64,000 nucleotides of DNA from Alphaproteobacteria bacterium (GCA_015062535.1 SUUK01000005.1:998-64997), one strand, 5' to 3'. Shown: positions 41 through 5,909, counted from the first letter of the stretch. Numbers and translations are program-made. Notes: generated by a model from the sequence alone, not told the origin.

Positions 41-147
41 AGGTTTTAATTTGTAGATCCCTTGACGATTGCTAAAGCAATCGAGGGATGACAGCTTAGG
101 AGTATGGGGCGAGAGCAATCGAGGGATGACAGAGAAGGAAAAATAAT
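41..147 (+). repeat. array spacer cassette type I: 7-bp-stem hairpin cgattgc-taaa-gcaatcg plus 2x direct repeat gcaatcgagggatgacag (77..94, 115..132)
   Basis: The same cassette recurs at 994..1101 with 18-bp direct repeats 38 bp apart. Confidence 0.8.
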
Positions 148-993
148 ATGAGTGAAGATATTTTAGAAAAGCAGTTGTTTGAAATTATCAAAGATAAAGA
201 AATGGCAGAGCATATTAAGCTTGCTAAAATTGATATGCTTGTTAGACTTGGTGTAGATGTTAATGCTATAAGTGATTATGGTTATAATGCATTAATGAGT
301 GCATCTCATTGTGGCTATAAAAAAATTGCAGAGCTATTAATTGAAAATAAAGCGGATATTAATCAAAAAGATAATGGTGGGTGGACAGCATTAATGAGTG
401 CGTCTTGCTATGGTCATAAAGAAATTGTAGAGATGCTAATAAAAGCAGGGGCGGATGTTAATGATAAAAATGTTAATGGTTATACTGCATTAATGAATCC
501 ATCTCATAGAGGTTATAAAGATATTGTAGAGGTGCTAATAAAAGCTGGTGCAGATGTTAATGCAAAAAATAGAGAATATACTGCATTATCGTATGCATCA
601 AGTGATGGATATAAGGAGATTGTTGAGCTATTAATTCAAAATGGTGCTGATGTTAATGATAAAAGCAGTGACGGATACACAGCTTTGATGTGGGCTTCAT
701 TGAAGGGAAATGGGGAAATTGTTGAGTTATTAATTCAAAAGGGGGCTGATGTTAATCAAAAAGATAATGATGGTCGGACAGCTTTGATGATGGCTTCAGA
801 GGGTGGTTATAAAAAAATTGTAAATCTTTTAATTCAAAATGGGGCTGATGTTAATCAAAAAAATAATAGTGGTCAAAATGCAATGATGTGTGCGTATAAT
901 GAGGAAACAAAAAAAGCAATAATTGATGCAGTTAAAAAGAGAAATGAAAAGACTGGTGAGAACGTGGTTGTTCAAGGATTTGAGCGAGAATAA
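148..993 (+). CDS. ankyrin-repeat protein, array paralog (N-module type I, C-tail type A ...VVVQGFERE)
   Basis: 281-aa ORF. It carries about 7 ANK units of 33 aa (G-ADVN-K...TALM-AS..GH.EIV.LLI). RBS aggaaaaataatATG. Confidence 0.85.
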   Translation: MSEDILEKQLFEIIKDKEMAEHIKLAKIDMLVRLGVDVNAISDYGYNALMSASHCGYKKIAELLIENKADINQKDNGGWTALMSASCYGHKEIVEMLIKAGADVNDKNVNGYTALMNPSHRGYKDIVEVLIKAGADVNAKNREYTALSYASSDGYKEIVELLIQNGADVNDKSSDGYTALMWASLKGNGEIVELLIQKGADVNQKDNDGRTALMMASEGGYKKIVNLLIQNGADVNQKNNSGQNAMMCAYNEETKKAIIDAVKKRNEKTGENVVVQGFERE

Positions 994-1101
994 ATGGGTT
1001 TAATTTGTAGATCCCTTGACGATTGCTAAAGCAATCGAGGGATGACGGGTTGGGAGTATGGGGCGAGAGCAATCGAGGGATGACAGAGAAGGAAAAATAA
1101 T
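994..1101 (+). repeat. array spacer cassette type I (second copy)
   Basis: Near-identical to 41..147. Confidence 0.8.
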
Positions 1102-2346
1102 ATGAGTGAAGATATTTTAGAAAAGCAGTTGTTTGAGATAATAAAAGACAAAGAAATGGCAGAGCATATCAAACTTGCCAAAATTGATATGCTTGTTAGA
1201 CTTGGTGTAGATGTTAATGCTATAAGTGATTATGGTTATAATGCATTAATGAGTGCATCTCGTTGTGGTTATAAAGAAATTGCAGAGCTATTAATTCAAA
1301 AAGGTGCTGATATTAATCAAAAAAATGATTATGGTATGACTGCTTTGATGTGGACTTCTCGTGATGGGTATACTGATGTTGCAGAGGTCTTAATTCAAAA
1401 TGGGGCTGATGTTAATCAAAAAAATAATAATGATGTGACAGCTTTGATGGAGGCTTCACAAAGTGGGCATAAGGAAATTGTGGGGTTATTAATTCAAAAA
1501 GGAGCAGATGTTAATCAAAAAAATGATTATGGAGGGACTGCTTTGATGTTGGCTTCATTGAGGGGAAATGAGGAAATTGTTGAGTTATTAATTCAAAACG
1601 GAGCTGATATTAATCAAAAAGATAATGAAGGTTGGACAGCATTGATGTGGGCTTCAGATGGTGGATATAAGGAAGTTGTTGAATTTTTAACTCAAAACGG
1701 GGCTGATGTTCATCAAAAAGATAATGAAGATTGGACAGCTTTGATGTGGGTTTCTCGTGATGGGTATACTGATGTTGCAGAGGTCTTAATTCAAAACGGG
1801 GCAGATGTTAATCAAAAAAAGATTGATGGTGATACAGCTTTGATGGAGGCTTCACAAAGGGGGCATAAGGAAATTGTGGGGTTATTAATTCAAAAAGGGG
1901 CAGATGTTAATCAAAAAGATAATGAAGGTTGGACAGCTTTGATGTGGGCTTCAGATGGTGGATGTAAGGAAGTTGTTGAATTTTTAATTCAAAACGGAGC
2001 TGATATTAATCAAAAAAATAATAAAGGTTGGACAGCTTTGATGTGGGCTTCAGAGGGTGGATGTAAGGAAGTTGTGGAATTATTAATTCAAAATGGAGCA
2101 GATGTTAATGCAAAGAATAAGTTAGGGAATACAGCTTTGATAAGGGCTTCAAGTCGTGGTTATGAAGAAATTGTTGAATTATTAATTCAAAATGGAGCGG
2201 ATATTAATCAAAAAAATAATAATGGTCAAAATGCCATGATGTGTGCAGATAATGAGAAAATAAAAAAAGCAATAATTGACGCTGTTAAGAAAAGAAATGA
2301 GAAGACAGGGGAAAATGTGATTGTTCAAGGAATTGAGAGAGAATAA
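1102..2346 (+). CDS. ankyrin-repeat protein, array paralog (type I N-module, about 11 ANK units, internal unit duplications)
   Basis: 414-aa ORF. Its N-terminal 55 aa are near-identical to gene 148..993. It contains internal 99-bp direct repeats. Confidence 0.85.
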   Translation: MSEDILEKQLFEIIKDKEMAEHIKLAKIDMLVRLGVDVNAISDYGYNALMSASRCGYKEIAELLIQKGADINQKNDYGMTALMWTSRDGYTDVAEVLIQNGADVNQKNNNDVTALMEASQSGHKEIVGLLIQKGADVNQKNDYGGTALMLASLRGNEEIVELLIQNGADINQKDNEGWTALMWASDGGYKEVVEFLTQNGADVHQKDNEDWTALMWVSRDGYTDVAEVLIQNGADVNQKKIDGDTALMEASQRGHKEIVGLLIQKGADVNQKDNEGWTALMWASDGGCKEVVEFLIQNGADINQKNNKGWTALMWASEGGCKEVVELLIQNGADVNAKNKLGNTALIRASSRGYEEIVELLIQNGADINQKNNNGQNAMMCADNEKIKKAIIDAVKKRNEKTGENVIVQGIERE

Positions 2347-4263: not shown

Positions 4264-4396
4264 TGGTTTTAATTTGGAGATCCCTTGACGTTTTGCGGGG
4301 CACAAAACGAGGGATGACAGGTATCGCGTGTTTTTTATTGAAAATGAGGTAAAATTATGATAAAATGGGCTATGTTTTGAGAAAAACGGGGCAAAA
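4264..4396 (+). repeat. array spacer cassette type II (copy 3; hairpin loop variant cggggca)
   Basis: Near-identical to 2347..2479. Confidence 0.8.
4338..4366 (+). promoter_or_regulatory. sigma70-like promoter TTGAAA-17-TAAAAT for ANK gene 4397
   Basis: Same element. Confidence 0.6.
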
Positions 4397-5776
4397 ATGA
4401 GCGAAGTAACGTTAGAAAGCCAGTTGATTGAGATTATCAAAGACGAAGAAATGGCAGACCATATTAAGCATGCTAAGATTGATATGTTAATTAGGCTTGG
4501 CGCTGATGTTAATGCTATGTATGGGGCAAAGTCTGCCTTAAAATTTGCAAAAGATAATAATTTAAAAAAAGTTGCAGAGCTTTTGGAAAATAATAATGCA
4601 AAAGATGTTTTTGATGAAAAAATAGCAGAAGAACTTGGTGTAAAATTAATAAAAGCTTGTCATGGTAAAGAAAAAAAAGACGCTAAAGAAATTATGGAAA
4701 TTAAAGAATTAATAAATAAAGGTGCGTGTGTTAATACTATAAATTATGATAATACTGCATTAATGAGTGCGTCTTACTATGGTCATAAAGAAATTTTAGA
4801 GATGCTAATAAAAGCAGGTGCGGATGTTGATGTAAAAGATAATAAAGGGTGGACAGCTTTAATTAACGCTTCATATTTTGATCATAAAGAAATTGTAGAG
4901 ATGCTAATAAAAGCAGGTGTGGATGTTAATCAAAAAGATAATGATGGATGCATAGCTTTGATGTTAGCTTCTAAAAATGGTCATAAGGAAGTTGTGGAGC
5001 TATTAATTCAAAATGGTGCGGATGTTAATGCTGAGAGTAATTATGGGTGGACAGCTTTAATTAACGCTTCAAATTATGGTCATAAAAAAATTGTTGAGCT
5101 ATTAATTAAAAATGGAGCGGATGTTAATGCTAAAACTAATAGTGATAGTACAGCTTTGATAGGAGCTTCATATTGGGGATATAAAGAAGTTGTTGAGTTA
5201 TTAATTCGAAATGGTGCTGATGTTCATCAAAAAGATAATGGTGGTAGTACAGCTTTGATGTATGCTTCATGTAAAGGTCATAAGGAAATTGTAGAGTTAT
5301 TAATAGAAAAAGGAGCGGATGTTAATCAAAAAGATAATGGTGGTAGTACAGCTTTGATGTGGGCTTCTCGTGATGGGTATACTGATGTTGCAGAGGTCTT
5401 AATTCAAAATGGGGCTGATGTTAATCAAAAAAATGATTATGGAATGACAGCTTTAATGGAGGCTTCAAAAAGTGGTCATAAGGAAGTTGTGGAGTTTTTA
5501 ATTCAAAAAGGGGCGGATATTCATCAAAAAGATAATAATGGTATGACAGCTTTGAGTGTTGCGTCATATAAAGATCGCAAAGAAGTTGCTGAACTTTTAA
5601 TTCAAAATGGGGCTGATGTTAATCAAAAGAATAATGAAGGTCAAAATGCCATGATGAGTGCAAAAAATGATGAAATAAGAAAAGCAATAATGGATGCTGT
5701 TAAAAAGAGAAATGAAAAAGAGAATGGTGGTTCTTTTTTCAGTAAAATAAAAAGAAGATTAGGAATTGACATGTAG
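4397..5776 (+). CDS. ankyrin-repeat protein, array paralog (type II N-module, about 11 ANK units; C-tail B)
   Basis: 459-aa ORF. It shares at least 69 identical bp (5366..5434) with gene 1102..2346. Confidence 0.85.
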   Translation: MSEVTLESQLIEIIKDEEMADHIKHAKIDMLIRLGADVNAMYGAKSALKFAKDNNLKKVAELLENNNAKDVFDEKIAEELGVKLIKACHGKEKKDAKEIMEIKELINKGACVNTINYDNTALMSASYYGHKEILEMLIKAGADVDVKDNKGWTALINASYFDHKEIVEMLIKAGVDVNQKDNDGCIALMLASKNGHKEVVELLIQNGADVNAESNYGWTALINASNYGHKKIVELLIKNGADVNAKTNSDSTALIGASYWGYKEVVELLIRNGADVHQKDNGGSTALMYASCKGHKEIVELLIEKGADVNQKDNGGSTALMWASRDGYTDVAEVLIQNGADVNQKNDYGMTALMEASKSGHKEVVEFLIQKGADIHQKDNNGMTALSVASYKDRKEVAELLIQNGADVNQKNNEGQNAMMSAKNDEIRKAIMDAVKKRNEKENGGSFFSKIKRRLGIDM

Positions 5777-5909
5777 TGGTTTTAATTTGGAGATCCCTTG
5801 ACGTTTTGCGGGGCACAAAACGAGGGATGACAGGTATCGCGTGTTTTTTATTGAAAATGAGGTAAAATTATGATAAAATGGGCTATGTTTTGAGAAAAAC
5901 GGGGCAAAA
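5777..5909 (+). repeat. array spacer cassette type II (copy 4)
   Basis: Near-identical to 4264..4396. Confidence 0.8.
5851..5879 (+). promoter_or_regulatory. sigma70-like promoter TTGAAA-17-TAAAAT for ANK genes 5910-8712
   Basis: Same element; it is the last promoter before three back-to-back genes. Confidence 0.6.

Follow-up and report, generated by a model that had tools for sequence, protein, structure and literature searches.

A two-tiered, YGTC-tagged hairpin between ankyrin-repeat genes of an alphaproteobacterium is probably a variant target of Ssn-type nucleases

Introduction

What do the near-identical spacers between the genes of a tandem array carry, and what were they copied for? 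The question is raised by a 64,000-nucleotide (nt) stretch of DNA from Alphaproteobacteria bacterium (GCA_015062535.1 SUUK01000005.1:998-64997; one strand, 5' to 3'; hereafter the window), which begins with a + strand array of ankyrin-repeat (ANK) genes. A preliminary description of positions 41-5909 had noted in the spacers a palindrome, a motif of the form CGAGrGATGACAG and, in some of them, a promoter-like site. The motif was said to look like a regulator or iteron binding site common to the paralogs, and the palindrome was suggested as a possible intrinsic terminator or insulator.

A different kind of element is offered by the Ssn proteins, ~94-aa single-domain GIY-YIG nucleases (CDD cd10448) whose genes have an SRM–ssn–SRM layout. 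The bracketing hairpin repeats are named NTS (NTS/dRS3) in Neisseria and SRM (Ssn-related motifs) in general (PMC11893778, Chenal et al. 2025). Here we report that the palindrome and the motif of the ANK spacers are parts of one hairpin, and that this element is a structurally distinct variant of the known repeat–nuclease system, by which the regulatory interpretation is largely replaced. Each spacer carries a hairpin that probably belongs to the class of SRMs and CGTC-tagged repetitive extragenic palindromes (REPs). It is most likely a single-stranded DNA (ssDNA) site bound and cleaved by Ssn, copied together with the ANK genes.

Results

The palindrome and the repeated motif form one hairpin

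ATCCCT, just 5' of the palindrome, is complementary to AGGGAT within the presumed iteron. The two features, previously described as separate, thus constitute a single two-tiered hairpin of 13–14 bp with a 3-nt TGA bulge. On the + strand its architecture is AG, ATCCCT, the TGA bulge, CG plus 5–6 bp plus loop plus CG, AGGGAT and GAC, with a core length of 36–46 nt. The minus strand of the elements reads YGTC-ATCCCT-CG…CG-TCA-AGGGAT-C, and the frame YGTC-AT…AT-C is kept in all seven copies of the window. As DNA, this strand has a folding energy of −7 to −11 kcal/mol (z between −3 and −6). In copy 1, the core at 55–92 is AG-ATCCCT-TGA-CG…CG-AGGGAT-GAC on the + strand and TGTC-ATCCCT…AGGGAT-C on the minus strand.

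The seven copies of this 45–50-nt element follow ANK genes, six within 41-5909 and one at 8717–8775. We built a covariance model of the element (R1); scanning the 64-kb window with filters off returned exactly 7 copies and none in the other 55 kb. The hairpin copies are as follows.

45..100, minus strand: copy 1, type I, inner stem ATTGC/GCAAT; R1 63.2 bits; ssDNA minus-strand fold −10.5 kcal/mol, z = −4.9
999..1054, minus strand: copy 2, type I; tail GACGG; R1 61.9 bits
2351..2409, minus strand: copy 3, type II, inner stem TTTTG/CAAAA, loop CTAATCA; outer-stem mismatch AGAGAT; R1 59.5 bits; DNA fold −7.1 kcal/mol
3363..3421, minus strand: copy 4, type II, AGAGAT variant as in copy 3; R1 57.6 bits
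4268..4326, minus strand: copy 5, type II, loop CGGGGCA; R1 65.1 bits; DNA fold −11 kcal/mol, z = −5.8
5781..5839, minus strand: copy 6, type II, loop CGGGGCA; R1 65.1 bits
8717..8775, minus strand: copy 7, after the last ANK gene; outer-stem mismatch ATACCT; R1 58.6 bits

Alignment resolved the spacers into two types, I and II.

41–147: type I spacer, complete element, its 3' arm recurring at a distance of 38 nt
994–1101: type I spacer, same organization
2347–2479: type II spacer, element, T-run, then TG-preceded TTGAAA-17-TAAAAT
3359–3492: type II spacer, same organization
4264–4396: type II spacer, same organization
5777–5909: type II spacer, same organization

Spacers of the same type are nearly identical, and the earlier statement that they form part of the duplicated unit, copied along with the genes, was confirmed. 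The palindromes also lie where they had been reported (type I cgattgc-taaa-gcaatcg; type II cgttttg-ctaatca/cggggca-caaaacg), and the differences between the inner stems of the two types, ATTGC/GCAAT and TTTTG/CAAAA, are fully compensated. The motif is repeated more often than expected: allowing up to two mismatches, CGAGRGATGACAG occurs nine times in the window within 82–8769 (shuffle mean 0.52), GATCCCTTGACG occurs seven times against 1.4 expected, and all copies of both are on the + strand between 56 and 8769. Two details of the preliminary description needed amendment. Its 18-mer direct repeat is exact at 77–94/115–132, but the pair at 1031–1048/1069–1086 has one mismatch in the first copy; and the spacer start 'tagatccc' holds for three of the six spacers in that range, the others reading 'gg(g/a)gatccc'.

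The second 3' arm of the type I spacers stands as a solo half-site, and a further candidate lies beyond copy 7.

115..132, minus strand: solo half-site GCAATCGAGGGATGACAG, which as minus strand is an additional 5' arm (CTGTCATCCCTCGATTGC) located upstream of the complete hairpin
1069..1086, minus strand: solo half-site of the second type I spacer
8784..8799, minus strand: possible degenerate half-site gcaatcatgagatgac, downstream of copy 7, tentatively read from the sequence

The element is a dispersed, covarying repeat

We scanned representative genomes of about 185,000 species for the exact pattern ATCCCTTGACG-N14–24-CGAGRGATGAC. At least 113 stretches matched; the matches listed came from about 35 assemblies, almost all of them metagenome-assembled genomes (MAGs) of rumen or gut Alphaproteobacteria, some with dozens of copies. 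Many other alphaproteobacterial genomes thus carry the element, and the motif is not peculiar to the array; its absence from other places, which the preliminary description had named as a ground for refutation, does not hold. One archaeal match, without a stem, looks like chance. R1 gave 214 matches in 0.7 Mb of fetched loci, many of them inverted doublets or tandem clusters. Intergenic positions account for 115 of 142 copies, and all four arrangements relative to the neighbouring genes occur, co-orientation with the upstream gene being the more frequent (60 vs 33). This distribution is the profile of a dispersed REP-like repeat, not of an ANK-specific control site. In the MAG BRZ_RM__bin80 (CALYAY), at loci L009-L020 and others, the hairpin forms part of a bigger mosaic repeat, flanked for instance by GAAAGGGGAGAGGGCAATAAGGAAG and …AAACCCTCCCC. 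With at least 35 near-identical copies in this MAG, a composite element seems to have been amplified recently.

The inner stem covaries. Most of 85 distinct inner sequences can pair over 5–8 contiguous positions, which is hardly ever seen after shuffling. Among 60 distinct instances, all four Watson–Crick types are found at each of five variable inner pairs, and 117 cells carry double changes against 36 in shuffles, with none of 500 shuffles reaching 117; only 2 cells are G·U. The flanks, left unconstrained by the search, are conserved nonetheless: across the 85 distinct members, A occupies −9, −8 and −2 (93% at −2), and G occupies −4 and −1 (95% at −1). GTC (GAC on the + strand) was part of the search pattern, and is also kept in the stem variants found with the model.

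These data bear on the regulatory reading, in which GATGACAG would be the operator or iteron of a regulator common to the ANK paralogs, the palindrome a terminator or insulator, and the type II promoters would restart transcription. The motif is indeed repeated, with two copies 38 bp apart in type I spacers, and all four type II spacers contain a T-run after the hairpin and a sigma-70-like site with 10/12 consensus matches and a TG extension. However, the motif is the 3' arm of a hairpin and covaries with its partner arm, and the same element stands in hundreds of unrelated intergenic regions in every orientation to genes; in related genomes it flanks Ssn-type GIY-YIG genes, as described below. 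A terminator scan scored nothing at any of the 7 window copies, and the type II T-run begins ~14 nt past the stem. Promoter-like sites are not enriched in the region either (40 found vs 36 expected). We therefore consider a regulator site shared by the paralogs improbable. The motif is very probably still a protein recognition site, not as a separate iteron or double-stranded operator but as the 3' arm and tail of the hairpin.

An RNA-level, REP-like role is another alternative: transcribed 3' hairpins would stabilize or process ANK mRNA and set the expression of the paralogs, and any connection with the nuclease would be purely historical. In the array, each copy begins on the sense strand ~15 nt past a stop codon; type I spacers fold as RNA at −26 to −28 kcal/mol (z about −3 to −4); and the family-wide bias towards co-orientation with the upstream gene points the same way, as does the report that CGTC and GTAG REPs lie mostly downstream of open reading frames (ORFs) and were proposed to be RNA elements (PMC3733652). 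Against this, only 2–3 G·U occur among ~770 paired cells, which is unusual for a selected RNA helix, and one third of the copies are antisense to the upstream gene. The elements have no match in Rfam 15, at the gathering threshold or at E up to 10, and the Ssn of N. meningitidis does not bind RNA (PMC11893778). An RNA role is thus unlikely, although it could coexist with a role as an Ssn site.

In related genomes the element brackets a small GIY-YIG gene

Inspection of the ~1-kb intervals between element doublets revealed a small ORF. Its product of ~96 aa (95–99 aa) has GIY-YIG (PF01541) as its sole Pfam match (E = 2e-16). By tblastn, the gene was found in five loci from five genomes, and in all five it is bracketed by elements, with a copy usually beginning within about 30 nt of the stop codon. 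The loci were element-selected, as the five 8-kb blocks had been fetched solely for carrying the element and not for the gene; against the five seen, we estimate ~0.5 co-occurrences by chance, assuming about one such gene per ~2 Mb genome.

For an independent test, 80 metagenome loci were fetched by protein alignment and then searched with R1. Of 49 R1 matches, 47 fell in the ten closest homologues (at least 62% identity), within a few hundred nt of the gene. All ten are flanked by the element, seven of them with matches on both sides. Beside the ssn genes the outer stem varies too, in compensated form (ATCGCT/AGCGAT, ACCCCT/AGGGGT, ATTCCT/AGGAAT and ATGCCT/AGGCAT). These copies show double changes in 10 of 13 pairs, with 95% of cells paired and G·U almost absent, in an alignment that was fitted to R1 and hence leans towards the structure. 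Homologues at 56–59% identity are flanked by the canonical NTS sequence TGTCATTCCCGCGAAAGCGGGAATCCAG, and the weak R1 matches near other homologues are simple GTCATCCCGC…GCGGGATC hairpins. The loci therefore form a continuum from canonical SRMs to the hairpin form of the window.

The protein is a candidate member of the Ssn clade (cd10448), and the catalytic Tyr/Tyr/Glu residues are present at the published spacing (Y7, Y18 and E65 here; Y6, Y17 and E64 in the published enzyme). A PDB sequence search showed weak similarity to UPF0213 structures (E = 7e-4), and NCBIfam returned only sub-threshold homing-endonuclease matches as a name for the protein. In one locus (L097, about 3960-4247) the ssn gene looks disrupted, with MYVYIM, a stop and the frame resuming at …MYVGVTNDL; it could be a pseudogene or an assembly error.

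The hairpin shares the frame of SRMs and of CGTC-tagged REPs

Ssn binds its hairpins as single-stranded DNA only, on one strand only, and cuts a few nt upstream. The base most critical for binding is the C after the palindrome, and for cleavage the three bases (GTC) before it; in vitro, both loss of the loop and its extension to a longer stem are tolerated (PMC11893778). The NTS, CGTC-ATTCCCGC…GCGGGAAT-C, and the minus strand of the window element have the same frame: an oriented hairpin with YGTC 5' of an AT-starting stem with a C-rich arm, and a G-rich arm ending in AT and followed by C. The critical 3' C corresponds to the + strand G at −1 conserved in our family. Like SRMs, the elements are mostly intergenic and often clustered, stand on one or both sides of a ~95-aa single-domain GIY-YIG gene, and cluster around genes likely involved in host interaction. 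They differ in being two-tiered, with 13–16 bp in which a free inner stem of 14–24 nt replaces the published loop of 0–5 nt, and in a conserved 3-nt bulge, which belongs to the 3' arm when the SRM-forward strand is read (as TCA, or as TGA in terms of the window + strand). The hosts differ as well, being uncultured rumen and gut Alphaproteobacteria here.

CGTC-tagged REPs have a CGTC/TGTC tag and an AT-starting stem, occur mainly in Alphaproteobacteria and have no known transposase (PMC3733652, Di Nocera et al. 2013). The window element resembles them in the terminal CGTC/TGTC tag, in the first pairs of the stem (A-T, then T-A), in a short unpaired tail, in its predominantly alphaproteobacterial hosts, in frequent inverted dimers and in having no associated tyrosine transposase. 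In each of the four published families a stem of 8–9 bp carries a loop of 4–5 nt (PMC3733652); the window-type stem is longer (13–16 bp) and bulged, and its stem length and loop fit none of them. Its dimers face each other with their tag-distal ends, whereas published dimers are mostly head-to-head (PMC3733652).

We also considered whether the element is a classical REP or REPIN, mobilized by a RAYT transposase (Y1, HUH-type). It is indeed short, extragenic and palindromic, the tetranucleotide G-N-A-G precedes its stem on the + strand, and inverted doublets are frequent in several genomes. REP/REPIN–RAYT systems and the subterminal hairpins of IS200/IS605 would follow the same logic, in which a small single-copy nuclease recognizes as ssDNA the short hairpin that brackets its gene. 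Their enzyme is HUH/Y1, however, and their tag differs; the gene actually flanked by our element is GIY-YIG, and the tag on the opposite strand, CGTC/TGTC, is that of the class reported without RAYTs (PMC3733652). A tblastn search with an approximate E. coli RAYT query gave no match below E = 0.1 in ~0.9 Mb of element-bearing loci. Mobilization by a RAYT is thus highly improbable.

Integron attC sites are comparable: they too fold as single-strand hairpins whose base is conserved and whose top varies, contain bulged bases and follow every gene of an array. By sequence inspection, the element is without the R'/R'' GTTRRRY boxes of attC, has no integrase and is dispersed outside arrays, and an attC identity was rejected. 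Other identities were likewise discarded by inspection. The tandem G·A pairs are in the wrong register for a kink-turn. A CsrA site is represented by ARGGAUG, but within the stem, and the element is orientation-independent. A sigma-32-like −35 box (CCCTTGA) is excluded by the variable 14–24-nt insert, which leaves no fixed spacer, and the resemblance of 'AATTTGTAGAT' to a Cas12a-like repeat end is coincidental, as its bases vary between copies.

Half-sites and strand bias

In the fetched loci, solo tag-side arms (CGAGGGATGAC on the + strand, GTCATCCCTCG on the SRM-forward strand) outnumber solo other arms by 37 to 9. Most of them are found at a distance of 15–110 nt from a complete copy, on the flank at which cleavage by Ssn would be expected. 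The layout of a full copy with half-sites is seen in the type I spacers of the window (115-132 and 1069-1086), in L097 at about 4310-4420 and in L042 at about 6040-6120; the trails of L097 and L042 adjoin ssn genes.

The elements are also biased in strand. Counted over the 8-kb blocks L007-L119 and window positions 1-9000, the AGATCCCT…GAC strand is the G-rich strand of its 8-kb block for 105 vs 46 elements and in 66 vs 17 loci (p ~6e-8), counts that include any effect of gene orientation. The presumed cleavable strand would therefore lie mostly on the C-rich strand.

The ANK gene array and its surroundings

The array comprises eight complete ANK genes on the + strand at 148..8712. The 3' end of a ninth lies at 1–40, and this gene is visible upstream in the metagenome contig L001. 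The ORF products match Pfam Ank families with E-values down to 1e-78.

148–993, + strand: ANK gene
1102–2346, + strand: ANK gene
2480–3358, + strand: ANK gene
3493–4263, + strand: ANK gene
4397–5776, + strand: ANK gene
5910–7064, + strand: ANK gene
7067–7825, + strand: ANK gene
7828–8712, + strand: ANK gene

The preliminary description covered the array up to 5909; it continues with three further ANK genes (5910–8712), separated by 2-nt gaps without a spacer, and with the seventh element after the last gene. The junctions of these three genes read TAA-aa-ATG, without a hairpin, and the C-terminus common to all three, …KIKKGFGIGK, is unlike that of the paralogs before them, which points to a distinct and later duplication unit.

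The sites previously described as near-consensus promoters are present in all four type II spacers. They are identical to one another.

2421–2449, + strand: sigma-70-like site TTGAAA-17-TAAAAT with TG extension, 10/12 consensus matches
3433–3461, + strand: same site
4338–4366, + strand: same site
5851–5879, + strand: same site

As sequence, the site is real and a good consensus match, and we regard it as a putative promoter.

The array raises a further alternative, that the spacers are inert duplication scars: one or two SRM copies beside an ancestral ANK gene would have been passively amplified, Ssn lost and the elements left idle. The near identity of same-type spacers, which are clearly part of the duplicated unit, fits such passive copying, as do the absence of the element from the other ~70 kb examined, the lack of an ssn gene nearby (window and flanks) and the stem mismatches in three copies. 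But the array keeps two inner-stem types with fully compensated differences, the related MAG SGB_4923, with about 77% nucleotide identity in its ANK array, has kept its elements intact, and the conservation of the flanks throughout the family argues for selection or recent activity. We consider idle scars a rather unlikely account.

At the head of the array, the metagenome variant L001 has a degenerate eighth hairpin (6281-6337, 36 bits) just upstream of the first ANK gene. In another variant, L003 (about 6280-6400), the genes upstream are altogether different, and no more than a remnant, GGAGGGATAATG, is left in this position. The apparent rearrangement breakpoint between L001 and L003 gives no ground for placing it at an SRM edge, as similarity just fades within the promoter and leader segment.

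Among the neighbouring genes, a T2SSE-family ATPase directly adjoins the array (window 8849-9979, minus strand), and a type IV secretion coupling protein (PF02534, TraG/VirD4-like) is encoded at L200 2255-4471, about 6–8 kb past the right end of the window; either gene may bear on how the ANK proteins are secreted or on the transfer of single-strand DNA. A match to RF03531 (window 18766-18865, + strand; 66.5 bits vs gathering 65.2), an Rfam family for a C. difficile small RNA lying within a helicase gene, falls inside a 799-aa ORF (16944–19343) and is probably conserved coding sequence. Two tRNA genes (RF00005), at 12077-12148 (minus strand) and 53752-53836 (+ strand), bear no relation to the hairpin element.

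Discussion

Collectively, the covarying structure of the element, its distribution over many genomes and its proximity to Ssn-type genes, all observed here, point to an SRM-class hairpin. We infer binding and cleavage by a nuclease, by analogy with the Ssn enzymes already characterized, as well as the presence of an Ssn in this genome and any biological effect. The active form would be the minus strand as ssDNA, 5'-YGTC-ATCCCT-CG-(paired stem and loop)-CG-TCA-AGGGAT-C-3'. A small single-domain GIY-YIG nuclease of the Ssn family would recognize the base of the hairpin, the 5' GTC tag and the 3' C, and would cut a few nt 5' of the tag, which in the window is just right of each 'GAC', between consecutive ANK genes. 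Cuts are thus predicted at each gene boundary that has a spacer. The inner stem would need only to pair, which explains why across species its sequence is free while the outer part is nearly invariant.

In the array, tandem duplication copied the repeats together with the genes, making it a string of gene–SRM modules in one orientation. Single-stranded copies of the array, such as incoming DNA or replication and repair intermediates, would be cut at module boundaries, and recombination would thereby be limited or shaped. The near-identical 100–130-bp spacers may meanwhile supply homology for unequal crossing-over. The present role of the elements in the array could range from none to the shaping of recombination.

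Several points weigh against an identification as Ssn sites. The window and ~16 kb of extra flank from matching contigs (7.5 kb left, 8.5 kb right) contain no ssn gene; a partner nuclease in this organism is therefore presumed. Within these ~80 kb of chromosome the element is confined to the ANK array, with no further strong copies in the flanks, so that it looks here like a local cluster and not a genome-wide repeat. Nuclease activity on window-type hairpins is presumed from the characterized Ssn of other clades, and no biological role has been established for Ssn outside Neisseria (PMC11893778). Three of the seven copies have an outer-stem mismatch, which could mean decay. Finally, the published SRM search string, HGTCWYN(0-2)YYVSBRHN(0-5)WNVSBRGN(0-2)RNCYNB, does not match anywhere in the window, also when loops of 0–30 nt are allowed, although as implemented here the expression recovers the NTS control, and SRMs in 24 of the 80 Ssn loci. 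Because the string is an operational tool built from 29 genomes (PMC11893778), we take its failure to mark a structural variant, not exclusion from the SRM class.

A more speculative and rather doubtful extension is that Ssn and the extended SRM hairpins act beyond an ssDNA restriction device and drive cassette-like turnover of host-interaction gene arrays. Tag-side cleavage followed by repair would leave the trails of extra tag-side half-sites. Whole gene–SRM modules, the ANK genes among them, would thereby be duplicated, lost or exchanged more readily. The strong bias of the cleavable strand towards the C-rich (template) strand would be an outcome of selection, sparing from self-cleavage the strand that replication or transcription exposes.

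Identification of the spacers as SRM variants replaces a tempting regulatory reading with one that can be tested. It extends the Ssn/SRM system, described in 2025, to a large clade whose hosts are uncultured Alphaproteobacteria of rumen and gut. Because the published string misses the hairpins of this clade, SRM censuses that rely on it undercount. The clade also provides a natural test of modularity, with the inner stem free and the base nearly invariant, which fits the in vitro picture of the NTS, in which base and flanks are recognized and loop bases are dispensable. The Ssn–hairpin pairs found here are candidate new specificities for single-strand DNA tools. In pathogenic Neisseria, NTS clusters surround surface and virulence genes; the effector-like ANK array with its gene–SRM modules is a parallel case and would offer a second system for asking how such repeats affect recombination.

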